From: Ferruginibacter sp.
GTDB taxonomy: Bacteria > Bacteroidota > Bacteroidia > Chitinophagales > Chitinophagaceae
Reading direction: 5' to 3'
Assembly: GCA_019638635.1 (NCBI GenBank)
Contig: JAHBTM010000006.1
Coordinates: forward strand, 4,360-68,359
DNA length: 64,000 bases
Below are positions 1 through 47,323 of the stretch, piece by piece; positions within the stretch are counted from its first letter, which is position 1; every line of letters begins with the position of its first letter. The notes below the pieces were generated by a model that worked only from the letters and a program-made list of their open reading frames with translations, made no database searches and was not told the origin of the DNA. Made by a program: the position numbers and the translations under genes.

Positions 1-279
1 TAAAGAGGCCTTCCCGTGTTGCATCGTATCCTTAATAGCCGCTACTTCCTGCTTTATTGCTTCAGCACCGGCAGCATCGCCCCGGCCTATGAATTGGCCA
101 ATCTGCTTCGATAAACGATTCACTTCTGCCTGCATCGTTTCTGTTTCCAGTTTTTGCTTGCGGAGTTTTTCATCCAAAGCCAATATCTCATCCACATATT
201 CTGGTTTCGAAAAATGCCTGACAGCAAGCCTTTCCTTCACCAATGCCGGATCCTGACGTATAATATTGATAGATAACAT
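1..279 (-). CDS. serS: Seryl-tRNA synthetase, N-terminal part (runs off window start)
   Basis: Manual translation from ATG at 279: MLSINIIRQDPALVKERLAVRHF...LDEKLRKQKLETE...VNRLSKQIG, the typical SerRS N-terminal coiled-coil arm; not in the ORF track. Confidence 0.85.
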   Translation of the reverse strand, partial: MLSINIIRQDPALVKERLAVRHFSKPEYVDEILALDEKLRKQKLETETMQAEVNRLSKQIGQFIGRGDAAGAEAIKQEVAAIKDTMQHGKASL

Positions 280-335
280 CCTTAAAATTTTGAAATCATT
301 AAGAGCGCAAAGATAAAGGGCAAATGCTTAATACT

Positions 336-343
336 TATTTTTG
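336..343 (+). promoter_or_regulatory. Bacteroidota -7 promoter box TATTTTTG, 4 nt before ATG 348
   Basis: Exact match to TAnnTTTG. Confidence 0.6.
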
Positions 344-347
344 CCGC

Positions 348-704
348 ATGGAGCATGCAGCAGCAGATTTGCAGGTACGATGGCTGAAGTTAAGAATCAA
401 ACTCAAAGAACGTTTCGGTATCAAACCGGATATGAATGGAGTGCTCCTCCTCATCGGCATTCAGGAACTGGGGCAGGGTCCACAGGAATTTTCCAAAGAA
501 CAGAAACAAGACCTGATGCACATTGCCGTGTGTAAAGTGCTTGCTCAAAGCGGGTATTATGTGTACGAAGGAGATGATGAAGAAGGATGGCCTCACTATG
601 CATCTGCCCAACCTCTGCCACCTTTTAATTTGATAGAGCAGGAAAATTTCCTGAAAGATCATATTTTGCTTTATTTTCAACAAAACGGATTTATAGAACC
701 ATGA
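348..704 (+). CDS. Conserved Bacteroidota hypothetical protein
   Basis: ORF 324..704; likely start ATG 348 just after the -7 box; contains LIGIQELG and EGWPHY motifs; ATGA overlap with the next gene. Confidence 0.7.
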   Translation: MEHAAADLQVRWLKLRIKLKERFGIKPDMNGVLLLIGIQELGQGPQEFSKEQKQDLMHIAVCKVLAQSGYYVYEGDDEEGWPHYASAQPLPPFNLIEQENFLKDHILLYFQQNGFIEP

Positions 705-1354
705 CAAAAAAAATCTTTTTCCTCGCCTTACTGGCCGCTTGCTTCAGCATCACCTCCTACGCTCAAAAAAGCTCGATTCGTGTACAAATCAGTACCGATT
801 CAGGAACCATCGTTGTAAAACTGTATGATGAAACCCCATTACATAGAGATAATTTTATCAAACTGGTACGACAAGGATTTTATGACAGCCTGCTGTTTCA
901 CCGTGTCATTCCTGAATTCATGATCCAGGGTGGAGACCCTACCAGCAAAAACGCACAACCCGGCACCATGCTCGGCGGAGGCGGTGGAAATATGGAAAGG
1001 ATTCCAGCTGAATTCCACCCCAACCTGTACCACAAAAAAGGAGCCCTGGCTGCCGCAAGAGATAACAATCCCGCGAAAGCCAGCAGTGCCTGCCAGTTCT
1101 ACCTGGTACAGGGAAAGAAATTCACTGATGGAGAATTAAGTATGATTGCCACACGCACCGGAAAAACGTTCTCGGACGAACAACGGAAAATGTACACCAC
1201 TGTGGGAGGGACACCATTTTTAGATCAGGACTATACCGTATTTGGCGAAATAGAATCGGGCCTGGAAGTAGTAGACAAAATTGTATCCGCCCAAAAAGAC
1301 GGAGCCAACAGGCCGCTTACCGATATCCGGATGCAAATTACAGAACTCCCGTAA
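701..1354 (+). CDS. Cyclophilin-type peptidyl-prolyl cis-trans isomerase with signal peptide
   Basis: TPLHRDNF, FHRVIPEFMIQGGDP, SSACQFYLVQG, GGTPFLDQDYTVFG. Confidence 0.95.
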   Translation: MTKKIFFLALLAACFSITSYAQKSSIRVQISTDSGTIVVKLYDETPLHRDNFIKLVRQGFYDSLLFHRVIPEFMIQGGDPTSKNAQPGTMLGGGGGNMERIPAEFHPNLYHKKGALAAARDNNPAKASSACQFYLVQGKKFTDGELSMIATRTGKTFSDEQRKMYTTVGGTPFLDQDYTVFGEIESGLEVVDKIVSAQKDGANRPLTDIRMQITELP

Positions 1355-1402
1355 GCGAACATTTTTTATCATAAATTGCAGCCCAATCTTTAAATCATTT
1401 TT

Positions 1403-1780
1403 ATGAACTATCCGGATAACCTCCGTTACACCAAAGACCACGAATGGGTTTCATTGGAAGGTAACGTTGCTACCATCGGCATTACTGATTTCGCACAACA
1501 CGAATTGGGCGATATTGTATATGTAGACATTAGCACCAAAGGGAAATCTTTAAACGCAGAAGAAATTTTTGGAACGGTGGAAGCTGTAAAAACAGTCAGT
1601 GATTTGTTTTTGCCGGTGGCCGGAACCATAAGCGAAGTAAACCCTGCCCTAGATGGTGCACCGGATTTGGTGAACAGCGATCCCTACGGCGAAGGCTGGA
1701 TGGTAAAAGTAACGGTAAACAATCCGGCTGATGTGGATGCCTTGATGGATGCCGCCGCTTATAAAGCCATGGTAGGTTAA
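1403..1780 (+). CDS. gcvH: Glycine cleavage system H protein
   Basis: [23 protein letters not shown], lipoyl-Lys motif [18 protein letters not shown]. Confidence 0.97.
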
Positions 1781-2190
1781 TGTCATTCCGCATTCCTACA
1801 TCCTATGGGCCTGGTATTATCTGGTTCCTCATTGTTTTGTTTCTGCTGACTTTGCCCGGAAGTGAAATTCCCAATCCTATTCCCTGGATGCAAAAGATTT
1901 ATTTTGATAAATGGGTGCATGCAGTATTGTTTGCCGTGCTCACCTGGCTGTGGTTGAACCCCACCCTGCGCACCGGAAAAACGCTTTCCACACAACGAAT
2001 GGTTACCACAGTATTCGTTATCATTGCATGGGGATTGGCAACGGAATATATTCAGGACCAATGGGTCCCCTTTCGCAGTTTTGAGTGGAGTGATTGGGGC
2101 GCAGATGCTGCAGGTACGTTAATGGGTGCTATCTTTTTCTATCAAATTACCCTCCCAAAGCATAAAAAGCGGAATTCATCGTTTAAATAA
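1780..2190 (+). CDS. VanZ family membrane protein
   Basis: DKWVHAVLFAVL, TEYIQ, RSFEWSDWGADAAG; several TM segments. Confidence 0.85.
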   Translation: MSFRIPTSYGPGIIWFLIVLFLLTLPGSEIPNPIPWMQKIYFDKWVHAVLFAVLTWLWLNPTLRTGKTLSTQRMVTTVFVIIAWGLATEYIQDQWVPFRSFEWSDWGADAAGTLMGAIFFYQITLPKHKKRNSSFK

Positions 2191-2212
2191 CATCATCCCG
2201 TAAACTTTAGTT

Positions 2213-2220
2213 TACATTTG
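2213..2220 (+). promoter_or_regulatory. -7 promoter box TACATTTG, 5 nt before ATG 2226
   Basis: Exact match to TAnnTTTG. Confidence 0.6.
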
Positions 2221-2225
2221 TAGAT

Positions 2226-2942
2226 ATGGAATACAACACCACCCGAAATAAACTGGAGATGAAGGAATATGGCAGACATATTCAGAAAATGGTTGAACAT
2301 CTCCTGAAAATTGAAGACAAGGAAGTACGGCAGAAAAATGCCTATGCCGTCATAGAATTGATGGGCTTTTTAAATCCACACCTGAAAAATGTGGAAGATT
2401 TTCGGCATAAACTGTGGGATCACCTCTTCCTGATCAGTGATTTTAAACTCGATGTGGATAGTCCGTACCCCATCCCTACCAGGGAAACCCTTCGCGCCAA
2501 ACCGGATCGCCTGCATTACCCTAAACGATATCCGAAGTTTAATCACCTCGGTAAGAATATTGAAATTGTAATTGATAAGGCCCTAAACGAAGAGAACCCT
2601 GAAAAGAAACAGGGTTTTGCCAATGCGATTGCATACTACATGAAACTAACGTACAGTAACTGGCATAAAGAACTGGTGCAGGATGAAACGATTCAAAGTG
2701 AACTAAGCACCATCACCAAAGGCGAACTGGAATTCACCAATCGTCCGTTTGTGAAACACCGCGCAGACAACCGTTCCGATATGGATGATTATGCATCCAG
2801 AGGTCAGTACCGGAAAAATTACGGTGCTCGCGACGGTCGTCAGGGGCAACAGGGAAGAGATAACCGCGGAGGCCAGCGCCGGGATGGCAATGGAAGAGAC
2901 CGCAACATGGGCGGAAACCGTAATTTTAAAAAACGCTACTAG
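2226..2942 (+). CDS. DUF4290 family protein with R/G/N-rich C-terminal tail
   Basis: MEYNT-R..L.MKEYGRHIQKMV, DFRHKLWDHL, LDVDSPYP; usual position upstream of murA in Bacteroidota. Confidence 0.9.
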   Translation: MEYNTTRNKLEMKEYGRHIQKMVEHLLKIEDKEVRQKNAYAVIELMGFLNPHLKNVEDFRHKLWDHLFLISDFKLDVDSPYPIPTRETLRAKPDRLHYPKRYPKFNHLGKNIEIVIDKALNEENPEKKQGFANAIAYYMKLTYSNWHKELVQDETIQSELSTITKGELEFTNRPFVKHRADNRSDMDDYASRGQYRKNYGARDGRQGQQGRDNRGGQRRDGNGRDRNMGGNRNFKKRY

Positions 2943-2967
2943 GCAATACCGTTAGTTGCAAGTTATG

Positions 2968-2999
2968 AACCCTAATCTTTGAACAGATCGGGGTTTTTT
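2968..2999 (+). terminator. Possible intrinsic terminator or processing hairpin between DUF4290 and murA
   Basis: AACCCTAATCT/AGATCGGGGTT imperfect stem followed by TTTT. Confidence 0.45.
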
Positions 3000-3025
3000 G
3001 TTCAACCTACACAACTCATTTTTCT

Positions 3026-4333
3026 ATGGCAGTATTCGAAGTGCTCGGCGGCAAAACATTATCAGGCAGTATTGAACCACAAGGTGCAAAAAATGAAGCA
3101 CTGCAGGTGATAGCCGCTGTGCTGCTTACAGAAGATACCGTAACCATCAGTAATGTGCCGGATATCATTGACGTTCGCTTGCTGATTGAATTACTCGAAA
3201 ACCTAAATGTTAAAGTAGAACGCAAAAGTGCCGACACTTGGGCTTTTACAGCCGGTGATGTACAAGTGGAATATTTAAAATCGCCTCAGTTTCGTCAGGA
3301 AAGTGCCAGACTCAGAGGCTCTGTCATGCTGGCCGGTCCATTGCTCGCCCGTTTCAGAAAGGCCTATTTGCCTAAACCCGGTGGAGACAAAATAGGACGC
3401 AGAAGAGTGGATACCCACATCATTGGCCTGGAACGCCTCGGTGCCTCATTCCGTTATGATGAACCCAGCGGATTCTTTCAACTCGAAACAAAAGGATTGA
3501 AAGGAACTACCATGTTGCTCGACGAGCCAAGCGTTACCGCTACGGCCAATATTCTGATGGCTGCGGTGATGGCGGAAGGCCAAACGGTGATGTACAATGC
3601 GGCCTGCGAACCTTATATACAGCAACTCTGTCATATGCTGGTGCGGATGGGCGCAAACATCTCCGGCATCGGAAGTAATTTACTCACCATTCAGGGCGTT
3701 GACAAACTACAGGGCACACAGCATACCCTGTTACCGGATATGATTGAGGTAGGTAGTTTTATTGGTATGGCAGCCATGACTCAAAGTAACCTGACAATAA
3801 AAAATGCGGGCGTACAACATTTAGGTATCATCCCTGAAAAGTTTGAACAACTGGGCATCCATCTTCAATTGTCGGGTGATGATATCATAGTACCGGCGCA
3901 GGAACGTTATACCATACAACGCTTTCTCGACGGAGGTGTACTTTCAGTGTATGATCACCCGTGGCCCGGTTTCACTCCCGATTTGCTCAGCATTGTGCTG
4001 GTGACGGCGATTCAGGCCAAAGGCAGTGTGCTCATTCACCAGAAAATGTTTGAAAGCCGTTTGTTCTTTGTAGACAAGCTGATTGAAATGGGTGCACAAA
4101 TCATCCTGTGCGATCCGCACCGTGCTGTAGTGATTGGACTCGATCGTCAGAAACCATTAAGGGGCATACACATGACCTCTCCGGATATTCGTGCTGGTGT
4201 GGCTCTGCTGATTGCAGCCATGAGCGCAGAGGGCACCAGTGTGATACAAAACATTGAACAAATAGATCGAGGATACCAGTCTATAGATACCCGCCTGAAT
4301 GCATTAGGAGCGTCTATTCAAAGAATCAGTTAA
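3026..4333 (+). CDS. murA: UDP-N-acetylglucosamine 1-carboxyvinyltransferase
   Basis: GAKNEAL, LRGSVMLAGPLLARF, PGGDKIGRRRVDTH (Asp at the Cys115-equivalent position, as in fosfomycin-insensitive MurA), PWPGFTPDL, SPDIRAG, IDRGY. Confidence 0.97.
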   Translation: MAVFEVLGGKTLSGSIEPQGAKNEALQVIAAVLLTEDTVTISNVPDIIDVRLLIELLENLNVKVERKSADTWAFTAGDVQVEYLKSPQFRQESARLRGSVMLAGPLLARFRKAYLPKPGGDKIGRRRVDTHIIGLERLGASFRYDEPSGFFQLETKGLKGTTMLLDEPSVTATANILMAAVMAEGQTVMYNAACEPYIQQLCHMLVRMGANISGIGSNLLTIQGVDKLQGTQHTLLPDMIEVGSFIGMAAMTQSNLTIKNAGVQHLGIIPEKFEQLGIHLQLSGDDIIVPAQERYTIQRFLDGGVLSVYDHPWPGFTPDLLSIVLVTAIQAKGSVLIHQKMFESRLFFVDKLIEMGAQIILCDPHRAVVIGLDRQKPLRGIHMTSPDIRAGVALLIAAMSAEGTSVIQNIEQIDRGYQSIDTRLNALGASIQRIS

Positions 4334-33453: not shown

Positions 33454-34188
33454 ATGAAGATTATCCCACTGAGTGAAGGCTCATTTACGATTGATGGAAC
33501 CAAAGACTTCATACCGTTTAATACGGCTACCGATCAACTTCAGGAAAGACCCCGGGGAAGTTTACTCGTAGAAATTCAACCGTTCGTGGTTGTTTTGGAA
33601 GAGGACATCATTTTACTGGATACCGGTTTGGGGTTTCAGGATTCAATAGGCCAATTGCAAATTCACCACAACCTTTCCAATGCAGGTATCAAGCCCTCAG
33701 ATGTTACCAAAGTTTTACTATCCCATCTGCATAAAGACCATGCAGGGGGTGTTGGAAAAGACAATCAGCTGAATTTTCCCAACGCGCAATATTATATTCA
33801 TCAGAAAGAATTGGAGTATGCCCTAGAAAAGGGAGTGCCATCCTATGATGTAAATGATTTTAAATTATTGATCAACCATCCGCAATGTACGCTGCTTCAG
33901 GATGATGCCGGAAATATCGGACAATACATTCGATATGAAATGCCGGGCGGGCATTGCCCTTTCCATTTGGCTTTTTGGATGGAGGATGCCGGTGAAACCG
34001 TTTTATTTGGTGGAGATGTAGCACCACAACTGCAACAAATGAAACATAAGTTTATAGCTAAATATGATTATGACGGGAAAAAAAGTATGGAGCAACGTGC
34101 CCAATGGTGGCAGGAAGGCAGAGAGCAAGGGTGGACATTTTTATTCTACCACGACATAAAAATTCCCTCCTTCAAAGCCGGGATATAA
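33454..34188 (+). CDS. MBL-fold metallo-hydrolase
   Basis: LLDTGLG, SHLHKDHAGG, GGHCPFH, GGDV, FYHD. Confidence 0.92.
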   Translation: MKIIPLSEGSFTIDGTKDFIPFNTATDQLQERPRGSLLVEIQPFVVVLEEDIILLDTGLGFQDSIGQLQIHHNLSNAGIKPSDVTKVLLSHLHKDHAGGVGKDNQLNFPNAQYYIHQKELEYALEKGVPSYDVNDFKLLINHPQCTLLQDDAGNIGQYIRYEMPGGHCPFHLAFWMEDAGETVLFGGDVAPQLQQMKHKFIAKYDYDGKKSMEQRAQWWQEGREQGWTFLFYHDIKIPSFKAGI

Positions 34189-34245
34189 AAAGGAGGCCTG
34201 CCCTAGACAGAGCTGGCCGTGCTAACCTATGAAAAACACCTGATA
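34187..34245 (-). ncRNA. Candidate small RNA (~55 nt)
   Basis: On - strand: ATTG-N19-TACATTTG promoter, then single-stranded GGUGUUUUUCAUAGG, then hairpin GGCC-A-GCUCU(GUCU)AGGGC-A-GGCC followed by UCCUUUUU; no ORF on that strand. Confidence 0.55.
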
Positions 34246-34276
34246 CAAATGTATTATAAATAATATAAATTCCAAT
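34246..34276 (-). promoter_or_regulatory. -33/-7 promoter of the candidate sRNA
   Basis: TACATTTG (34253-34246) exact match; ATTG (34276-34273) 19 nt upstream. Confidence 0.6.
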
Positions 34277-34324
34277 GCCTGTGCCCTTTTTTAGTAGACA
34301 AACAGGCAGTTGGGGTGTTTCCAT

Positions 34325-34353
34325 AAAAAAACCACACTGTAAGGGTGTGGTTT
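34325..34353 (-). terminator. Intrinsic terminator of the ECF sigma operon
   Basis: ACCACAC/GTGTGGT stem with an A tract on +, 19 nt past the stop at 34372. Confidence 0.7.
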
Positions 34354-34371
34354 CCTGAAATTTCTTGGTGA

Positions 34372-34773
34372 TTAAGGCCTGCCCGGGCCGGGACGTTGCC
34401 TGGATTGTTTCAACCTTTCTACCAGTTTTTTGCGAAATTCCGCGTCTTTGCGATAAAACTCATCCGTTCTTTCTTTTCCGATGATGCCGGAGAAACGGCT
34501 TTCGTATTTCTTTTTGATGTTCAATAACTGCTGTTGTCGATCCAACTCCGGAAGGTCGCGCGGTACTTTTTTCATTTCCTCGTCGAAACTGGTATGCACC
34601 GGCCAGAATTTTTCAGCTTCGTCGGAAGTTAATTGCAAGGCTCGGGTGATATACGCTACATAAAGCGCTTCCACACGTTCACCGGGGCGGCCTGGTCCGT
34701 CACCCCCGGGGGGTTGTGACATCACTGAACTTCCGGAAATTAGTAAAACCAATGCGATGTACAATGCTTTCAT
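34372..34773 (-). CDS. Secreted helical hypothetical protein (possible ECF accessory)
   Basis: Signal peptide; RVEALYVAYITRALQLTSDEAEKFWPVH motif typical of the third gene in Bacteroidota ECF triads. Confidence 0.75.
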   Translation of the reverse strand: MKALYIALVLLISGSSVMSQPPGGDGPGRPGERVEALYVAYITRALQLTSDEAEKFWPVHTSFDEEMKKVPRDLPELDRQQQLLNIKKKYESRFSGIIGKERTDEFYRKDAEFRKKLVERLKQSRQRPGPGRP

Positions 34774-34774
34774 A

Positions 34775-35425
34775 TTACATTTCTTTTATATCAGGCAGGT
34801 TGAGCTTTTGTAAAAACTGGTCGAGTGTGTTATCATCTAACCAATAATCTTCAGGAGCCGGTAAATCCTCTTCCATTGCAGCTTCAGCCACCAGAGCGGC
34901 ATTCACATCAAATCCTGAACTTTCAAGGTAAGCAATAATTTCCTCACCGGAAATTGATTGCAGTACCTCTTCATATCGGTTCTCGCTGATTATTTGATTG
35001 GCGGAGAGGTAATTGTTTTCTACTGAATGGACGGAAGCAGACTGTATCCATTGGAACACACCCAACCCCAGCAATCCGGTACATGCGGCAGCAAGGGCAT
35101 ATCTCATCATTGAAAAACGCGGAGAGCCGATGGTGTGTACCGGTGCCATCTCCGGAGTTTCCGCCGGGTAAGCACCCATGGATGTACCAGCTTTGACTTT
35201 TTGTAAAACCGTATCGGCAAATTGATCAAAATAGCCAGCCGGCACGTCTTGTATTCCGCTACTATGGCCGGTTGTTTGTTTCATGAGCGATAATGGGAAT
35301 GTGTCAAAATACCCTTCGGGCACCTCATACAAAGGTGCGTCGGGTACAGGAAGCAGCCCCGGGGCCAGTTCACTGAGTTCCTGACGGGTATTTTTTTCAT
35401 TCTCAAACATCCGTTCTTCGACCAT
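34775..35425 (-). CDS. Probable anti-sigma factor (single TM)
   Basis: Two VPxGYF(D) repeats, one TM helix (YALAAACTGLLGLGVF), directly after the ECF sigma gene. Confidence 0.7.
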   Translation of the reverse strand: MVEERMFENEKNTRQELSELAPGLLPVPDAPLYEVPEGYFDTFPLSLMKQTTGHSSGIQDVPAGYFDQFADTVLQKVKAGTSMGAYPAETPEMAPVHTIGSPRFSMMRYALAAACTGLLGLGVFQWIQSASVHSVENNYLSANQIISENRYEEVLQSISGEEIIAYLESSGFDVNAALVAEAAMEEDLPAPEDYWLDDNTLDQFLQKLNLPDIKEM

Positions 35426-35441
35426 TTCCGGTTGTACAGGT

Positions 35442-35999
35442 TTAATGATTCAGAATATATTCTTCTACCTTTTTAACGGCGTGGTGATAGCTAGCTTTCA
35501 ACGCCCCCTCACTGGTTTCCAATATTTTACTCATGGCTTCGTAGGGCATTTCTTCATAATATCTCAGGCTGAAAACCACCCTTTGTTTTTCAGGTAATTG
35601 TTGTATGGCCAGCTGCAGTTTCCACTCCAGTTTAGAAGCATCAAAGTGTTTTTCGGCACGGATGGTATTGGAGAGGTTGGAATGTTCGTTATCCAGCGAG
35701 GCAGACTGGCTGTTTCTTTTTTTATTTTTTTCGAGGTACGACAGACTTTCGTTGGTAGCAATCCGGTATATCCAGGTAAATAGTTGGCTGTCTTCCCGGA
35801 ATCCGTCGAGGTGCTTCCACATTTTGATGAATACATTCTGCATCACATCATTGGTGTCTTCATGGTGCACCACCATACGGCGGATATGCCAGTAAATGCG
35901 TTCCTGATATTTTCTTACAATTCGGGTATAGGCTGATTCACGGGTAGCCGGGTTAGCAAACTCCAGTAACAGGGTTTTATCGTCGGGATGTACAGCCAT
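35442..35999 (-). CDS. ECF-type RNA polymerase sigma factor
   Basis: YQERIYWHIRRMV, DVMQNVFIK, TWIYRIATNE, LPEKQRVVF, GALKASYHHA. Confidence 0.95.
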   Translation of the reverse strand: MAVHPDDKTLLLEFANPATRESAYTRIVRKYQERIYWHIRRMVVHHEDTNDVMQNVFIKMWKHLDGFREDSQLFTWIYRIATNESLSYLEKNKKRNSQSASLDNEHSNLSNTIRAEKHFDASKLEWKLQLAIQQLPEKQRVVFSLRYYEEMPYEAMSKILETSEGALKASYHHAVKKVEEYILNH

Positions 36000-38102: not shown

Positions 38103-39743
38103 TTATAAAAATAATTTGGTGATAAAGTACGTGATGGTAGCCAGCACGGCACTCACCGGAATAGTTAATATCCACGCCCAAACCAGGTTGATGGTAACGC
38201 CCCAGCGTACCGCGCTCAGTCTTTTGGTAGCACCCACCCCAATGATGGAGCCGGTAATAGTATGTGTAGTAGAAACGGGTATTCCCATTTGTTCGGTCAT
38301 GAACAGCGTCATAGCTCCAGATGTTTCTGCGGCTACGCCTTCCAGTGGGGTAACCTTGGTTATTTTTGTACCCATGGTTTTAATAATCTTCCATCCACCA
38401 CTCATGGTACCCAATGCAATGGCTGAATAACAGGCCAATGGTATCCAGTTGGGCATTTCCTTAATATCTACCAGCATTCCTTCAGCCACCATAGCTGCGG
38501 CTATGATACCCATTACTTTTTGGGCATCGTTGCCCCCGTGTCCAATACTGAAAATGGCAGAAGATAACAGCTGAAGTTTCTTGAACATGCTACCGGTACG
38601 CAGGGCACTGGGTTTGCGCATTTTCTCCACATAAAAGAAACTCAGGATAAAGATCAGCGCTATTGCAGCTATGCCATACCGTAAGTAGCTGTTATCGGCG
38701 CGCGCAATTTGTTTTTCGATGTCTTTTCTAAGGCTGATTCCATTGATGGCGGAAAGCAACTGGCGGTAATCTGCCGCGTGCAATCCCATAATGTTTCCGA
38801 TACTATCAGCCAGTTTTGTATTATCCATCACCCCATATTGAGCATAGAGGTGTGTGGTTTTTTCCACCAGTGCAAACATACTGTCGGCCTGTGGTTTGAA
38901 TTCTGGTTTTTGATCGGCTTTTCGTTTCAGTCCTTCCAGCCGGAATGTAGTATTCATCACATCCCTCATTTCAGGTTCACCCATACCCACAAGATATCCT
39001 CTGGATTCAATTTCGTTTGCGATGGCTACAGCCCCTTTCTTGTTGTACTCTTTTGCCAGCACCACCGAACTGTCGTATCGCAATCGAGCAATTTCATATT
39101 GAGCTGTACGGGAAGGATCTTTTTTCAGTTTATCTATCTGATAAAACTTGGCAAGATTTTCTTTAATCTTTCCTTGTTGAAGATAGTTAAACACCATCCA
39201 CACACCTGCTGTTGCCACTACGATGATGGCGGTTTTTAGCCAGAATCGCCGGTTGATTATGACCAGCGTGAGGAACATGGACACCAGCATACCTATGAGT
39301 GGCGCCAGGAAGATGAACAGGATGATTTGCAGTACCTTTTTATCTTCAATAATTTGTGAGATGCCGATGAATCCTTTTTTATCAATAGCATGCGCAATAG
39401 CCGCCCCTGCGAAACCACCGATAAGGGTGTGTGAAGAAGAAGAGGGGATACCATACCACCAGGTGAGCAAATTCCACGCAATGGCAGCAATAAGGCCGGA
39501 AAATATTACCGGGAGGGTAATGAATTCAGATTTTACTGTTTTGGCAATGGTATTGGCAACGGCGTGGTCTTTAAAGATGAAGAAGGCCACAAAGTTGAAA
39601 AAGGCTGCCCAGGCAACGGCCTGAAATGGAGTAAGCACCTTAGTAGAAACCACCGTAGCGATGGAGTTGGCCGCATCATGAAACCCGTTGATATAATCAA
39701 ACACCAGGGCGAGGAATATGATAACAAGAAGCAGAGTAGACAT
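38103..39743 (-). CDS. PiT family inorganic phosphate transporter with a large internal insertion
   Basis: NGFHDAANSIAT, GIPSSSSH, GHGGNDAQK, GGWKIIKTMG, GIPVSTTH; 546 aa because of a ~200-aa insert. Confidence 0.93.
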   Translation of the reverse strand: MSTLLLVIIFLALVFDYINGFHDAANSIATVVSTKVLTPFQAVAWAAFFNFVAFFIFKDHAVANTIAKTVKSEFITLPVIFSGLIAAIAWNLLTWWYGIPSSSSHTLIGGFAGAAIAHAIDKKGFIGISQIIEDKKVLQIILFIFLAPLIGMLVSMFLTLVIINRRFWLKTAIIVVATAGVWMVFNYLQQGKIKENLAKFYQIDKLKKDPSRTAQYEIARLRYDSSVVLAKEYNKKGAVAIANEIESRGYLVGMGEPEMRDVMNTTFRLEGLKRKADQKPEFKPQADSMFALVEKTTHLYAQYGVMDNTKLADSIGNIMGLHAADYRQLLSAINGISLRKDIEKQIARADNSYLRYGIAAIALIFILSFFYVEKMRKPSALRTGSMFKKLQLLSSAIFSIGHGGNDAQKVMGIIAAAMVAEGMLVDIKEMPNWIPLACYSAIALGTMSGGWKIIKTMGTKITKVTPLEGVAAETSGAMTLFMTEQMGIPVSTTHTITGSIIGVGATKRLSAVRWGVTINLVWAWILTIPVSAVLATITYFITKLFL

Positions 39744-41943: not shown

Positions 41944-44760
41944 ATGAGATTTTTTACGTTTTTATTGTGTGTATTAATATCAGGTGTAACCTATGCACAA
42001 AATGGATTGGTTGAAGGCCAGGTAATAGATGAAAGAACAGGTTATCCAGTAGCCGGTGTTTCAATACAAGTTTCGGGTGAAAAAACACAATTTGTATCTA
42101 ATCAGGAAGGACGCTTTGGCTTTAATTTACCTGCCGGGAAATCATATTCCATTATATTTTCATCAGTAGGGTTTTCAACAAAAGCAATAGATGATGTGCA
42201 GGTTGAAAAGGATAAGGTAAGTAACCTAACTGTGGCGTTAGTAAGAAAAGCAAAGGATGAAGAGGCGGTGGTAGTAAGAGCCAGTGCACGACGCGAAACC
42301 GTGAATGCCATGATTGTTTTTCAAAAGAACACCAATACTGTAGCGCAGGTGGTATCCGCTGAGGCCATTAAAAGATCACCGGACAGAAATACCGGTGAGG
42401 TTTTGAAACGTGTTCCCGGAACCAGCGTACAAGAAGGAAAGTATTTGATTGTAAGAGGTTTGGCCGACCGTTACAATCAGGCCATGCTCAATGGTATTTT
42501 GTTGAGCAGTACTGAACCTGACCGTAAAACATTCAGCTTTGATTTGTTTCCATCTTCCATCATTGAAAACATCGTTATCAATAAAGCCTTTATTCCGGAA
42601 TTACCCGGAGAGTGGGCCGGTGGGTTGGTTCAGGTAAATACAAAAGATGTTCCGGGAAAAGGATTTATGAATTTCCAGATTGGCACCGGTTTTAACACGG
42701 CTACCATTGGAAATGATTTTTATTCGTATCGTGGAGGCAAAACCGACTTTCTGGGTTTTGATGATGGCACCAGAAGTATTCCGGGTGCATTACCGGTGAA
42801 ATCATCTTTCAATCAGTTATCAACACAACAGAAGACGGAATGGGGTAAGCAGTTTAAAAACATATGGACTGCCAATCCTCTGAACAACAGATTAGCCGGT
42901 GTGTTGAATCAGTCAGTGCAAATCAATGGCGGATTTAAAAAATCTCTTGGAAAAAACAATTCACTTTCTGCCTTACTGGGTGTGAATTACAACCGCAGCA
43001 ATCGTCGTTCCTCCTTCGTAAACCGCATTTACTCCATTCAGAATAATACAGCAGATATCAACTTTGATTACAATAACGAAAAGTATAGTACCGATATTCT
43101 TGCAGGTGCCATGGCGAACTTTACTTTACAGTTGGGGGTTAACCATAAAATTTCATTCAAGAACATCCTCAATGTAAATACTACAGATTACGCAACCATC
43201 AGAACCGGAAAAGATTTTGAGACAGATCCCATTGTGGGTGATAATATACGTGCCACTGAGTTAGCCTTTAAAGCCAATACTTTTTTCAATACGCAAATTG
43301 CCGGCGACCATTACATCAAGCCGTTGAAATCGAAATTGCATTGGTATGGAAGTTTCAACATTTTAGATCAGCATATACCTGACCAGCGACGCGTTCAATA
43401 CAATCAGCTCAATCCTAATGATCCCAATTCACCCTTTGCTTTGTTGGTCAGTTCTTCCAAAACATCACAAAAGAGCGGCAGCAGATACTTTGGTTTCTTA
43501 AGTGATTATAATTATACAATGGGGGTTAATCTTTCTCGCCCGTTTCAAATCGGGCAAAGGGTACATAACGTGAAAGCCGGATATTTCTTTCAGGTAAAAG
43601 ACCGGTTATTCGATAGCCGCCCGTTTGCAATTTATTTGCCCGTGGATAATCCTACCCTTCGTTTAATGGATCAGGCCAGTGTGTTTGCTCCCGAAAATTT
43701 TGGAAACGGATTTGATAACCTTTTTGCCTTCAACGAAATTTTTGATTATCGTTACCGGTATGTAGCTAACTCCATTTTGAATGCAGGATTCCTGCAGTTC
43801 GATCAGCCCGTTGGAGAAAAGACAAGAATTGTGTGGGGTGCAAGATTGGAACATTTCGATCAGGTTGTGGGCAGCATGGAGAAAAACGATCCCCGCCATG
43901 TGTATTCCAAAAAGAAGGATGTGTTACCGGGCATGAACCTTACCTACAAACTCAATAACAAAACCAACATTCGTGTTTCAGCATCGCAAACGGTGATTCG
44001 TCCAGAGTTCAGAGAATTGAGTGCATTTAGTTTTTATGATTTTGATTTAGGTGCTACGGTAACAGGTGAACCGAATCTTGTCCGCACCAAAGTAACGAAT
44101 GCGGATATACGCTACGAACTCTATCCGGCAGGTGGTGAAATGTTAACCATGGGGGTGTTCTATAAATATTTTAAAAATCCGATTGAATTGTTTTTTAATC
44201 AGTCGGGTGCAGGCAGCAGCAGCACATTCAACTACCTGAATGCTACAGAAGCCAGCAGTTATGGTGCCGAGCTGGAATTCAGGAAGAAACTGGATTTTAA
44301 TCAGGCGTTGAAAAACTTCACAGCGCATGGAAACGTATCGTACATCTACAACCGTATTCCCGGGTTAAACCGTCCCATGCAGGGGCAAAGTCCTTATCTT
44401 TTAAATCTGGGGTTACAATATGATTTACAAAAGCATGGATTGAGTACAACCGTGTTGTTTAACCAAATTGGAAGAAGAATTTATTATGTAGGAACTGCTT
44501 CAAACACAGGACAGGTAATCAGTGATAACTATCCACCGGTTTGGGAAGCACCCAGGGCTATACTCGATTTTCAGGTATCTAAAAAAATTATCCAAAACAA
44601 AGGTGAGTTGAGATTAAATGTATCAGACATACTCAATCAGAAAGCAAAATTCTATCACGATCTCAACGGAAATAAAAAATATGATAAGAAAGAAGATGCA
44701 CTCGCTATCAGAAGAATTTACGGCACCAATATTTCAATCTCATTCGCCTACGGGTTTTAA
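41944..44760 (+). CDS. TonB-dependent receptor
   Basis: Signal peptide, carboxypeptidase-regulatory-like N-domain, plug (LKRVPG, VRGLADRYN, DLFPS), barrel, terminal YGF. Confidence 0.95.
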   Translation: MRFFTFLLCVLISGVTYAQNGLVEGQVIDERTGYPVAGVSIQVSGEKTQFVSNQEGRFGFNLPAGKSYSIIFSSVGFSTKAIDDVQVEKDKVSNLTVALVRKAKDEEAVVVRASARRETVNAMIVFQKNTNTVAQVVSAEAIKRSPDRNTGEVLKRVPGTSVQEGKYLIVRGLADRYNQAMLNGILLSSTEPDRKTFSFDLFPSSIIENIVINKAFIPELPGEWAGGLVQVNTKDVPGKGFMNFQIGTGFNTATIGNDFYSYRGGKTDFLGFDDGTRSIPGALPVKSSFNQLSTQQKTEWGKQFKNIWTANPLNNRLAGVLNQSVQINGGFKKSLGKNNSLSALLGVNYNRSNRRSSFVNRIYSIQNNTADINFDYNNEKYSTDILAGAMANFTLQLGVNHKISFKNILNVNTTDYATIRTGKDFETDPIVGDNIRATELAFKANTFFNTQIAGDHYIKPLKSKLHWYGSFNILDQHIPDQRRVQYNQLNPNDPNSPFALLVSSSKTSQKSGSRYFGFLSDYNYTMGVNLSRPFQIGQRVHNVKAGYFFQVKDRLFDSRPFAIYLPVDNPTLRLMDQASVFAPENFGNGFDNLFAFNEIFDYRYRYVANSILNAGFLQFDQPVGEKTRIVWGARLEHFDQVVGSMEKNDPRHVYSKKKDVLPGMNLTYKLNNKTNIRVSASQTVIRPEFRELSAFSFYDFDLGATVTGEPNLVRTKVTNADIRYELYPAGGEMLTMGVFYKYFKNPIELFFNQSGAGSSSTFNYLNATEASSYGAELEFRKKLDFNQALKNFTAHGNVSYIYNRIPGLNRPMQGQSPYLLNLGLQYDLQKHGLSTTVLFNQIGRRIYYVGTASNTGQVISDNYPPVWEAPRAILDFQVSKKIIQNKGELRLNVSDILNQKAKFYHDLNGNKKYDKKEDALAIRRIYGTNISISFAYGF

Positions 44761-44788
44761 ATTTTAACATATAAAATAAGCATACAAC

Positions 44789-46201
44789 ATGAAAAAGGTA
44801 TTATTAGGGTTAGCCATTGTAACGGCCGTTTCGCTGCAATGCCGCAAAATTGAAGTAGATGGAGAGGGTGGTTCCAACATACCAACCGATCCCACCGAAA
44901 ATGTTATCTTAGAAGGAAGGATAACGGAGAACCGTACACTAAAAGCAAATTTTACATATAAACTGCGCGGACTGGTTTATGTTACAAATGGTGCCATCCT
45001 CACCATAGAACCCGGAACTAAAATTGTGGGGGAATCGGGAAGAAATGGCGGCCTCGTTATTACCCGCAGCAGCAAGATTATAGCTGATGGAACTCCTGAA
45101 AAACCTATTGTATTTACCTCTGAAGAATCTACACCAGCACGTGGCGACTGGGCCGGTGTGGTTATTCTGGGAAATGCTCCCACCAATGCCTCATTCAACG
45201 GTATTCAGGGGGTGGGTGAAATTGAAGGAGGAATCAATAACAGTGATGGTTTAGGTTTGTATGGAACGCCTATTACACAGCAACAAAACCCCGCAGACAA
45301 CAGCGGAATCCTGCGGTATGTTAGAATTGAATATGCAGGATATGCATTTTTACCCGACAAGGAAATCAACAGCTTAACGCTGGCCGGTGTGGGAAGTCAG
45401 ACTGTAATCAACCATGTGCAGGTATCGTATGCCAATGATGATGCTTTTGAATTCTTTGGTGGAACCGTGAACGCTTCACATCTCATTGCCTACAAAACAC
45501 TGGATGATGATTTCGACACCGACAATGGCTACAGCGGAAAAATTCAATTTGGTATTGTGTTGAGAGACAGCGCAGCAGCCGATATCAGTAAAGTGGAAGC
45601 ATTCGAAAGTGATAATGATGCCAATGGAAGTACTTTAACGCCATTAACCAAAGTGGTATTCAGCAATTTTACCGTACTGGGTCCGCGTGCAACCACCGCC
45701 AACACAGGGAACAATCTCTATCTCGCTGGTGCGCAAATCCGCAGAAATTCAAGCATGAATTTGTTTAATTCAATTATTGCAGGATGGCCAGTGGGTTTAT
45801 TGATTGATGGCAGTAAAGGTTCTCCAACAGATTTAAATATTACCGGCACGACACCCACATTATTTGTTCAAAATACAGTAATCTCCGGTTCTCCAGATGG
45901 ATATGCCGTTCGGTATGCGCCTAGTGCTTCTAATCCAACCGGTAGTACACATCAATCCATGCTAGACTGGTTCAATACACCATCGTACAATAACACCATT
46001 CTTGCAACCAACAGTGCATTAGGGTTAACCGATCCATTCAATTATAACAATCCTGATTTTAACCCGGTACCCAACGCTTTGGTGGCTACAGGAGCCAGTT
46101 TTACTCATCCGAATGTTGCCTCCGGTTTTACATCGGTGAGTTATCGTGGTGCTTGTGCGCCTGGAGATACGTGGTGGAAAAACTGGACCAGGTTCAATTA
46201 A
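44789..46201 (+). CDS. Surface lipoprotein, probable right-handed beta-helix
   Basis: Lipobox SLQ-C, DNSGILRYVRIEYAG, DDAFEFFGG, DDDFDTDNGY, FESDND acidic repeats; cotranscribed with the receptor. Confidence 0.8.
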   Translation: MKKVLLGLAIVTAVSLQCRKIEVDGEGGSNIPTDPTENVILEGRITENRTLKANFTYKLRGLVYVTNGAILTIEPGTKIVGESGRNGGLVITRSSKIIADGTPEKPIVFTSEESTPARGDWAGVVILGNAPTNASFNGIQGVGEIEGGINNSDGLGLYGTPITQQQNPADNSGILRYVRIEYAGYAFLPDKEINSLTLAGVGSQTVINHVQVSYANDDAFEFFGGTVNASHLIAYKTLDDDFDTDNGYSGKIQFGIVLRDSAAADISKVEAFESDNDANGSTLTPLTKVVFSNFTVLGPRATTANTGNNLYLAGAQIRRNSSMNLFNSIIAGWPVGLLIDGSKGSPTDLNITGTTPTLFVQNTVISGSPDGYAVRYAPSASNPTGSTHQSMLDWFNTPSYNNTILATNSALGLTDPFNYNNPDFNPVPNALVATGASFTHPNVASGFTSVSYRGACAPGDTWWKNWTRFN

Positions 46202-46232: not shown

Positions 46233-46266
46233 AATCCCCCTTCCTGTTCTCAGGAGGGGGTTTTTT
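46233..46266 (+). terminator. Intrinsic terminator after the lipoprotein gene
   Basis: CCCCCTTCCTG/CAGGAGGGGG stem followed by T6. Confidence 0.75.
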
Positions 46267-47323
46267 ATTCGGAGGCGCTGGCTTTTTTGGATAGTGTAAA
46301 TCCGAAGGTGGAACCCACATCTACTTTACTGCGTACATGAATGGTTTGTCCATGGGCTTCAATAATGTGTTTGCAAATAGACAAACCCAACCCGCTGCCA
46401 CCGGTTCGGCGCGCGCGCGCTTCATCGGTGCGGTAGAAACGTTCAAACAAACGCGAGAGCTGGTCTTCGGCAATACCAAAACCATTGTCGCTGATTTCGG
46501 TGAGTACCCGGTTGTCATCCAGATTGTAAAAACTGGCTTCAATAATGCCTTCCATTTTGCCGTATTTAATGGAGTTCTCTATCAGGTTGGTGATCACCTG
46601 TCTGATTTTTTCTTTGTCGGCATACACCGTAAGAGGAGATTCGCATCCCTTCTTAATAAAGGCTTTAATCTTTTTTTCCCGCAGATGTATATCTAATGAT
46701 TCAAACACTTCCAATACCAGATCCTGAATCACAAAATTTTTCTGATGCAGTTTTACCTGCCCGCTTTCCAGCGATGAAATTTCATCCAGGTCATCCAATA
46801 AATTTACCAACCGTTCTACATTCCTTGAAGTGTTTTGTAAAAACTTCGTGTTTACCTCATCGTTGTGTAATGCGCCGTTGAGTAGGGTTTCCACATAACC
46901 CTGAATGGCAAACACCGGAGTGCGCAGTTCATGTCCGAGGTTTTGAAGAAACTCTTTTCTGAATGCCTCATTCTTGCGTAAAATTTCTACTTCCTGTTTC
47001 TTTTGTTGTGCCCAGGATTCCACATCGGCACGAACTTCTTCTATGCCTTTTTGCGGCAACAGATTTTTATAATAAAACTCCTCTTTCTTACTCGCCTTGG
47101 TTTGGTAAATGAGTTTATAAATCAGTTTTATTTTACGGTAAATAAATGTTTGAAGCGTAAACAAAATCAATCCGTAACTGCCGGCAAAAATGACCATAAA
47201 AGACAACAGGGCAATCCACCAAACCGGTTTAAAAATAAAAATACCGGTGGCTATAGGCAGCGAAAGGATAAATGCGGTGAAGAGCGATAACTCCTGGGGA
47301 GTAAAACTTTTATTTCTGAACAT
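46265..47323 (-). CDS. phoR: PhoR-like sensor histidine kinase
   Basis: Two N-terminal TM helices with no periplasmic domain, NLGHELRTPVFAIQGYVETL, NLIENSIKYG, FERFYR, GGSGLGL; symbol assigned from context. Confidence 0.8.
   Translation of the reverse strand: MFRNKSFTPQELSLFTAFILSLPIATGIFIFKPVWWIALLSFMVIFAGSYGLILFTLQTFIYRKIKLIYKLIYQTKASKKEEFYYKNLLPQKGIEEVRADVESWAQQKKQEVEILRKNEAFRKEFLQNLGHELRTPVFAIQGYVETLLNGALHNDEVNTKFLQNTSRNVERLVNLLDDLDEISSLESGQVKLHQKNFVIQDLVLEVFESLDIHLREKKIKAFIKKGCESPLTVYADKEKIRQVITNLIENSIKYGKMEGIIEASFYNLDDNRVLTEISDNGFGIAEDQLSRLFERFYRTDEARARRTGGSGLGLSICKHIIEAHGQTIHVRSKVDVGSTFGFTLSKKASASE

Follow-up and report, generated by a model that had tools for sequence, protein, structure and literature searches.

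What occupies the 183-nt gap between two convergent genes on a Ferruginibacter sp. contig, and does it act beyond its neighbours? The stretch analysed here (64,000 nt of contig JAHBTM010000006.1, hereafter the window) holds, on one side of this gap, a gene for a metallo-β-lactamase (MBL)-fold hydrolase and, on the other, an operon for a sigma factor of the extracytoplasmic function (ECF) type, a putative anti-sigma protein (p216) and a secreted protein (p133). An earlier note on this DNA had placed in the gap a stand-alone small RNA (sRNA) gene whose product would mask start codons or act as a sponge for an RNA-binding protein. Judged by comparison with its relatives, the unit is a genuine sRNA gene under very strong conservation, because the comparative evidence (conservation, covariation and promoter) is overwhelming, with the evidence from the single sequence near chance. 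We further consider it fairly probable that positions 34241–34187 of the − strand specify an independently transcribed, trans-acting sRNA of ~55 nt that pairs with translation start regions in the manner of the FopS RNAs of Bacteroides and that is probably tied to the ECF module.

The candidate gene and its parts

Read on the − strand from 34276 to 34187, the unit runs ATTG, 19 nt, TACATTTG, TATCA, GGTGTTTTTCATAGGTTAGCAC, GGCCAGCTCTGTCTAGGGCAGGCC and TCCTTTTT, and its parts are as follows.

34273–34276, − strand: −33-like element ATTG (TTG core), read from the sequence and separated from the −7 box by a 19-nt spacer
34246–34253, − strand: −7 box TACATTTG (Bacteroidota sigma-A consensus TAnnTTTG)
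34241, − strand: predicted transcription start (A), placed from the position of the −7 box
34187–34241, − strand: predicted sRNA of ~55 nt, from covariance model R1 and conservation
34220–34240, − strand: invariant single-stranded 5′ region GGUGUUUUUCAUAGGUUAGCA, from folding and identity among homologues
34239–34229, − strand: R1-type core GUGUUUUUCAU inside the 5′ region, identical to the start of the FopS consensus
34195–34218, − strand: terminator hairpin GGCC-A-GCUCU / GUCU loop / AGGGC-A-GGCC, from folding and covariation
34187–34194, − strand: U-rich tail UCCUUUUU, overlapping the TAA stop codon of the MBL gene (34186–34188, + strand)

Mapped start sites in Flavobacterium put the −7 box at −12 to −5 (PMC9723704), from which we infer a +1 at A34241 and a transcript of ~55 nt. 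The 5′ stretch GGUGUUUUUCAUAGG, which starts at 34240, is mostly unpaired in the minimum-free-energy fold, where only a weak 5-bp helix of GUGUU with nucleotides ~23–27 is predicted. The hairpin folds at −17.6 kcal/mol on the − strand compared to −11.8 kcal/mol on the + strand, owing to a U–G pair, and it is followed by a U tail on the − strand only. Thus, the promoter, the 5′ stretch and the hairpin with its U tail all lie where the earlier note had put them; its statement that this strand carries no open reading frame (ORF) was wrong, as an ATG-initiated ORF of 50 codons (34324–34172, − strand) crosses the unit.

Taken alone, the sequence is unremarkable both in a 15-mer search (one match compared to 2.7 expected at ≤3 mismatches) and in the fold z-score of the candidate hairpin (−1.66). 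Covariance model R1 scores 71.4 bits at the candidate, which is its sole strong match in the window (the next, at 46237–46269, reaches 19.5 bits), and the 64 kb accordingly hold one copy of the sRNA.

Conservation of promoter, 5′ region and hairpin in relatives

Syntenic loci (L numbers) were chosen through their MBL or p133 proteins, independently of the RNA sequence. All ten carrier lineages picked in this way (L002, L006, L010–L013, L016 and L137–L139) hold an intact sRNA whose 5′ 21–23 nt are 100 % identical, at flanking-gene identities that drop to 25–64 % at the amino-acid level. No copy was found at the syntenic site in L001, L014 (Pinibacter soli) or L015, even with filters off.

The pattern holds over a wide range of divergence. 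In relatives whose MBL proteins are 98, 80 and 79 % identical, a 97-nt block from the promoter through the U tail is 100 % identical, and in the same genomes the loop of T1 (the intrinsic terminator of the ECF operon), the spacer after T1 and the 3′ end of the MBL gene diverge, with indels by which the 50-aa ORF is lost. In L010–L013 and L016, at 61–68 % MBL identity, the 5′ 21–23 nt are still 100 % identical; the full 48-nt transcribed core is 100 % identical in L010–L012, and hairpin changes in L013 and L016 are confined to unpaired positions. The U tail stays U-rich in all homologues while varying in sequence. L137–L139, which were chosen through p133 homologues (47–62 % identity class), each show the operon, a T1-type terminator after p133, TTG-N19-TAnnTTTG and then an sRNA with the identical 5′ 23 nt.

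The promoter is conserved with the RNA. The TAnnTTTG box stands at a fixed distance from the sRNA across homologues, with its T, A and TTTG positions kept and its n positions varying (TAGATTTG in L010), and TTG is kept in L010–L012 and L137–L139. At 61–68 % MBL identity, the only promoter changes are at n positions, at bases next to the start site and in the spacer, as a 1-nt indel (one base longer in L011 and L012). Over 121 distinct upstream regions, TTT occupies −9 to −7 in 95–113, with G or A at −6 and A at −12, and a TTG lies 17–23 nt upstream of the −7 box in 50.

For the hairpin, 97.7 % of cells are paired over 117 aligned sequences and eight of the nine pairs have changed on both sides, values that none of 500 shuffles reached and compared to which slid controls were far lower. 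The G–U pair that had been described as specific to the − strand is indeed so: it is a U–G in 67 of the 117 homologues, which would be a C–A mismatch on the opposite strand, and its frequency fixes the transcribed strand as −.

A metagenome scan with the 21-mer extended these results to at least 120 loci and at least 125 distinct sRNA versions, from sources named Ferruginibacter, Puia, Chitinophagaceae and Chitinophagia, with carriers in soil, sludge and freshwater. The joint conservation of promoter, seed and hairpin in relatives, which the earlier note had itself proposed as a check, is therefore found, and with it the stand-alone gene that it claimed.

Two explanations without a functional RNA can be weighed here. 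One is that the unit is a tiny coding gene (the 50-aa ORF 34324–34172 or a shorter peptide) and the other that it is a DNA site such as dif/Xer at the terminus; we regard both as barely credible. There is a 50-codon ORF on the − strand, convergent gene blocks flank the site and, in L001, xerD adjoins the MBL gene. However, the start and 5′ part of the ORF are unconserved, with non-triplet indels in close relatives, and the conserved part of the unit is devoid of synonymous variation, so the unit is not coding. We rejected a dif or replication-terminus site because the GC skew keeps its sign at 34.2 kb. Against both stands the hairpin covariation, whose G–U pairs point to RNA.

A separate observation concerns the extent of the identity. 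The identical 97-nt block (34187–34283) includes the whole promoter spacer and is shared by three species-level lineages whose flanking proteins are 71–86 % identical. Constraint over an entire block exceeds what is usual for an sRNA with its promoter and may reflect an overlapping regulator-binding site or a function in an antisense 3′ untranslated region (UTR) of the MBL gene. Metagenome assemblies also break at this block: X5 contigs end or begin within 34186–34215, and X10 leaves 34131–34344 uncovered. Such breaks are expected if co-occurring species share an identical block, which then forms a branch point in assembly graphs.

A seed shared with FopS

Is the candidate a member of a known family? 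In Rfam 15, no family reached threshold, and none was listed in a 3-kb scan of the locus; a literal sequence search of the literature found no paper. In scans of 131–161 nt, FopS (RF04319, BTncRNA_FopS) was the best match for the window, at 17.3 bits, and the best sRNA-family match for the distant variant L103, at 18.6 bits (E about 0.7–1). The gathering score of FopS is 56 bits, and the candidate falls short of it.

The match is nevertheless exact where it concerns the seed. Window positions 34239–34229 correspond to FopS consensus positions 1–11, GUGUUUUUCAU, with 11 of 11 nucleotides identical (the R1 seed), and this seed is invariant in all homologues. The cmscan alignment also places an AGGUUA block and the terminator on the FopS consensus. 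The second FopS element, R1′ (consensus 12–21, gGUAUUAGAU), is not found: the candidate reads AGGUUAGCAC there, and cmscan aligns it by deleting 13 positions. The reverse complement of the 11-mer GUGUUUUUCAU occurs by chance once (in L001) in 1.65 Mb of sequence read on both strands. Given this rarity, the common phylum and the common architecture, the seed identity with FopS is unlikely to be accidental.

In Bacteroides thetaiotaomicron, 14 FopS RNAs have promoters of the canonical sigma-ABfr type, a 5′ seed (R1/R1′) that is single-stranded, and a terminator. By pairing beside the start codon, they block translation of SusC-like mRNAs, as established by in-line probing, compensatory mutants and in-vitro translation (PMC11697453). 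They are bound in their 5′ portion by RbpB, a protein with an RNA-recognition motif (RRM), and are induced by bile salts; FopS/R1 sRNAs are reported to be conserved within Bacteroidaceae at 12–15 copies per genome (PMC11697453), and the R1 seed is also present in GibS (PMC7366714).

The candidate resembles FopS and GibS in its 5′-terminal GUGUUUUUCAU, in the anti-start-codon CAU inside the seed and in the aligned AGGUUA block. Its predicted order of parts is also alike, with a promoter of sigma-A(Bfr) type (TTTG at −33 and TAnnTTTG at −7 in FopS, ATTG-N19-TACATTTG in the candidate), a seed and a putative Rho-independent terminator. It is also of similar size (55 nt compared to 65–70 nt). It differs in lacking ~19 nt of the FopS body and in R1′, which is AGGUUAGCA(A)C in the candidate and GGUAUUAGAU in FopS. 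Whereas FopS is multicopy in Bacteroidaceae, the candidate belongs to the class Chitinophagia and has one main syntenic copy tied to the ECF operon. With formal FopS membership failed, the candidate, as far as sequence can tell, is a shorter, new relative or analogue of FopS from Chitinophagia.

How such an RNA would work follows the FopS model. A housekeeping-type Bacteroidota promoter, TTG-N19-TAnnTTTG, would drive an RNA composed of the invariant unstructured (A)GGUGUUUUUCAUAGGUUAGCA and a Rho-independent terminator. Its 5′ region would pair across translation starts, as in the ‘R1-seed’ sRNAs FopS and GibS of Bacteroides: CAU with AUG, GGUGUUUUU with codons 2–4 of starts of the Met-Lys-Asn/Lys type, and AGGUUAGCA with the 5′ UTR. 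This pairing would stop ribosomes from loading on mRNAs without Shine–Dalgarno sites, from which Bacteroidota are largely free, and an RRM-type RNA-binding protein may modulate the sRNA.

Complementarity to sigma and anti-sigma mRNAs

Which mRNAs would be paired? Four in-window targets had been named: the Pho lipoprotein (44789), VOC (56544), galE (38051) and the small Cys-rich protein (17963). These did not hold up. Their duplexes, at −6.3 to −10.7 kcal/mol, compare to a mean of −10.4 ± 2.4 kcal/mol over 101 ORF starts, among which three of the four fall, at ranks 40, 61 and 77; all that they share is the generic ATGAAAAA. A scan of the whole window for duplexes gave, as best non-self match, 39286–39307, which is antisense to the PHO4 gene and was set aside. 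We also rejected the start regions of p133, which have only the generic AUGAAAAA in common (mean −10 kcal/mol) and are explained by coding constraints, and a 9-mer, UGAAAAACA, that recurs in sigma region 4 (LPEKQR): its synonymous variation is ordinary, and amino-acid conservation with codon bias accounts for it.

Conserved complementarity to the ECF operon is found in two other clades. In clade A (10 loci), the start region of the sigma gene reads (U)UGCUAACCU(U)AUG inside otherwise dissimilar 5′ UTRs (sequence of the region: UUGCUAACCUUAUG), and one of these sigma starts is the called protein start. Here, CAU and AGGUUAGCAA of the sRNA are complementary to the sigma AUG and the 10 nt upstream of it, and the start region pairs with CAUAGGUUAGCAA at −19 to −23 kcal/mol, compared to −7 to −17 kcal/mol in most other loci.

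In clade B (about 7–13 loci, with several promoter types), codons ~15–25 of the putative anti-sigma gene read GCCGUUGCUAACCU, giving 13–17 contiguous complementary nucleotides and duplexes of −30 to −39 kcal/mol. The synonymous positions of this site are all invariant amid saturated flanks. L027 carries the 13-mer GCCGUUGCUAACC ~886 nt upstream of its sRNA, in the second repeat of the anti-sigma N-terminal motif, where it is read in the frame S-P-L-L-T rather than the P-A-V-A-N of L047 and L031; that the nucleotides stay the same while the frame differs suggests selection on the nucleotides themselves. On the antisense strand and in downstream regions, which served as controls, complementarity reached at most 9–10 nucleotides, paralogues excepted. 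Neither site is present in the operon of the clade of the window or of L137–L139.

These sites bear on the idea that the RNA is chiefly a protein-binding one, whose 5′ region titrates or delivers an RRM-type protein (an analogue of RbpB) or another factor instead of serving as a pairing seed. Its appeal is that at least 21 invariant nucleotides exceed what an sRNA seed typically needs and that RbpB binds FopS in just this 5′ portion (PMC11697453). We nevertheless think it improbable: the complementary sigma and anti-sigma sites are conserved at the nucleotide level, which favours RNA–RNA pairing, and the same seed acts by pairing in Bacteroides, with proof by compensatory mutation (PMC11697453). 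A search by RNP1 motif found no RRM (RbpB-like) gene in the window, a result that is uninformative for the whole genome. Start-codon masking, with or without an RNA-binding protein, thus remains plausible by analogy with the FopS seed and by clade A, and of the earlier proposal it is the named targets that fall away.

A number of results weigh against an independent sRNA that pairs with start regions. The FopS match is weak overall (17.3–18.6 compared to 56 bits, E ~1) and needs deletions of 13 and 6 nt, and the shared U-rich seed could be convergent, on starts of the AUGAAAAA type. No convincing target was found at any of the 101 ORF starts in the 64-kb window, in which the only SusC-like gene (41944–44760) starts MRFF and shows no complementarity. 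The adjacent operon lacks a significant site: the best one (35871–35852, in the sigma gene), at −20 to −29 kcal/mol, stays inside what shuffled controls give. A single evolutionary event may underlie clade A, and likewise clade B. The 100 % identical promoter spacer in the subclade of the window is more than the model needs. As to expression, the sequence is present in many metatranscriptomic runs as assembled contigs; at a depth of 2–11, these contigs run past both ends of the unit, so discrete boundaries are not seen, those of X19 end before the unit, and the signal may stem from DNA carry-over, read-through or an antisense MBL 3′ UTR.

A tie to the ECF operon

To what is the sRNA gene linked? 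The genes and the terminator around it in the window are these.

33454–34188, + strand: MBL-fold hydrolase gene (Pfam), convergent, placed last, behind the PBP2 and RodA genes
34372–35999, − strand: ECF operon (sigma/p216/p133), adjoining the sRNA upstream on the same strand
35999–35442, − strand: ECF sigma factor gene (Pfam and NCBIfam)
35425–34775, − strand: p216, putative anti-sigma of 216 aa, without a curated family
34773–34372, − strand: p133, secreted protein of 133 aa, without a curated family, with a signal-peptide-like N terminus
34322–34356, − strand: T1, intrinsic terminator of the ECF operon, upstream of the sRNA promoter

The operon had been said to have its own terminator, and T1 bears this out: its stem (34353–34329; inverted repeat 34329–34337/34345–34353) is followed by U7, folds at −13.4 kcal/mol (z −2.1) and shows compensatory changes in L002, L006 and L011.

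Among the 120 matches listed from the 21-mer scan, the sigma/p216/p133 operon immediately precedes the sRNA on its own strand in 88; 13 are too short to judge, and several of the other 19 show a p133-like secreted ORF. The MBL gene is convergent in 78 locus copies; L013, L016 and L115 have it inverted and keep the sRNA all the same. The sRNA is also kept without the operon in L010 and L025, and it occurs in about ten unrelated contexts, among them beside unrelated genes in L044, L054, L063, L092 and L109. A search of genome contigs with the MBL protein gave one distant locus, without the operon. In the Puia-like L013 (2211–2501) and L016 (1725–2501), the MBL gene is flipped with respect to RodA, and L016 has a PDDEXK_3 gene inserted as well. 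The sRNA remains beside the ECF operon in both, which shows that its evolutionary tie is to this operon.

This variety of contexts decides against a mere back-up terminator, be it for read-through from the ECF operon or for the MBL gene, with promoter and seed incidental. In favour of such a terminator, the hairpin and its U tail sit on the strand of T1, 110 nt downstream of it, and immediately follow the stop codon of the MBL gene; the earlier note had listed a terminator role alone as what would refute its sRNA. Yet a terminator needs neither an invariant 21-nt stretch nor a positionally conserved TAnnTTTG; on the + strand, the stem has C–A mismatches and no U tract after it; and the unit is retained both where the MBL gene is not convergent and where no ECF operon precedes it (L010 and L025, among other contexts). 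The comparative data effectively refute this explanation, and we give it almost no weight.

A closer competitor is a dedicated regulator of the neighbourhood that acts solely on the ECF operon mRNA, setting the sigma:anti-sigma ratio, or as a cis-antisense RNA to the 3′ UTR of MBL/RodA/PBP2, with no wider regulon. The tight linkage to the operon (88 of the 120 listed loci) and the long complementary stretches at the sigma start or in the anti-sigma coding sequence of two clades speak for it, as does the overlap of the MBL stop codon with the sRNA tail, by which any MBL 3′ UTR would be perfectly antisense to the sRNA. However, the operon holds no significant site in the clade of the window or in L137–L139, and the 5′ half GGUGUUUUU does not vary although the sites of clades A and B make no use of it. 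The RNA is moreover retained in loci that lack the operon or have the MBL gene inverted, and extra copies stand at unrelated loci. A role confined to the neighbours is, on balance, unlikely.

For the trans-acting sRNA that we favour, the operon linkage and the complementarity of the 3′ half of the seed to the operon mRNA in two other clades suggest that it is probably the post-transcriptional arm, or a feedback element, of an envelope-type sigma module. A role of the operon in envelope stress may reasonably be inferred. p133 has a faint Pfam match to Metal_resist (CpxP/Spy-like; E 0.022) and is labelled ‘Skp family chaperone’ in some sources; it also carries a conserved motif, LxLTxxEAEKFWP, and homologues of p216 have a common N-terminal motif, ELxxISP...PxGYF, which is sometimes duplicated.

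Proteobacterial envelope-stress sRNAs offer a parallel, namely the sigma-E-dependent MicA, RybB and MicL, and CpxQ, which derives from the cpxP 3′ UTR and lies directly downstream of a periplasmic chaperone gene; Bacteroidota, to our knowledge, have no Hfq. Like these, the candidate would be a small seed-type RNA attached to an envelope-stress module, and like CpxQ it lies directly downstream of a gene for a secreted protein, p133, with faint CpxP/Spy-like and ‘Skp family’ hints. Unlike these, it has no sequence relation to any of them and, different from CpxQ, appears to have its own housekeeping-type promoter, with terminator T1 between operon and RNA, and is not evidently ECF-dependent. An origin as a 3′ UTR-derived (CpxQ-type) sRNA seems ruled out by T1 and the conserved TAnnTTTG between p133 and the RNA, and by the presence of the RNA without the operon in L010.

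Another small RNA found beside an ECF sigma gene in Bacteroidota, with an example from Chitinophagaceae, is the guide RNA of dCas12f–sigma-E systems (PMC13472631). The locus has no gene of Cas12f size, and the candidate lacks a CRISPR repeat-like scaffold; its conserved part is the ‘guide-like’ 5′ region, which is variable in guide RNAs and invariant here. We therefore rejected this assignment.

Extra copies of the sRNA

Signs that the sRNA can become multicopy come from two loci. L078 carries two identical copies (2943–3006 and 3804–3867) as a tandem duplicate 861 nt apart. In L038 (5188–5251 and 5997–6060), the second copy, ~800 nt upstream of the first and with no ECF operon nearby, has diverged, with CAUAAAGG instead of CAUAGG, and scores 52 bits. 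In another locus, L114, the copy in a different context (4055–4118, − strand) stands ~870 nt upstream of a gene for a 1060-aa SusC-like protein (1–3180; CarboxypepD_reg-type N terminus) that has the same orientation. In run X56, eight variant unitigs cover the sRNA core of L103 (1845–1902) at a summed depth of ~420, compared to 27 for the flanking 30-kb contig, which means either many variant copies or many species in the sample.

A broader scenario, which we offer tentatively and hold to be possible at most, is that the R1 anti-start-codon seed GUGUUUUUCAU is an ancient, phylum-wide device. The founding copy in Chitinophagia would have been wired to an envelope-stress ECF module, repressing envelope mRNAs of the Met-Lys-Asn/Lys type and feeding back on the sigma/anti-sigma mRNA through a site that shifts, from clade to clade, between the sigma start and the coding sequence of the anti-sigma gene, and the multicopy FopS family would be a later expansion.

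Nearly all functional knowledge of Bacteroidota sRNAs that we are aware of comes from gut Bacteroides, and the candidate now adds a class-wide, extremely conserved sRNA in environmental Chitinophagia. The seed that it has in common with FopS and GibS suggests that start-codon masking may be a general solution in a phylum poor in Shine–Dalgarno sites, and its fixed ECF-operon neighbour, with operon complementarity in two clades, suggests how ECF modules may gain a post-transcriptional arm. Covariance model R1 could seed a new Rfam family and so improve the annotation of thousands of metagenome-assembled genomes.

Further observations in the window

A longer hairpin was considered and rejected as part of the element. 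In a read-through RNA, UAUGGAAACACC (34314–34325, just after T1) can pair with the seed at 34228–34240, and the 146-nt fold reaches −42.6 kcal/mol (z −2.66); its upstream arm is unconserved in L002 and L006.

The neighbours of the locus also include a gene for a transketolase subunit. The MBL-fold hydrolase (33454–34188) has a weak precomputed Pfam match to Anti-Pycsar_Apyc1 (PF23023), and in NCBIfam it most resembles quorum-quenching lactonases, at scores well below cut-off. At 41944–46201, the window encodes a TonB-dependent receptor with the CarboxypepD_reg/Plug/β-barrel (SusC-like) architecture, followed by a 470-aa protein without a family; they adjoin genes of the PHO4 and PhoU-like kinds and together may form a SusC/D-like pair related to phosphate.

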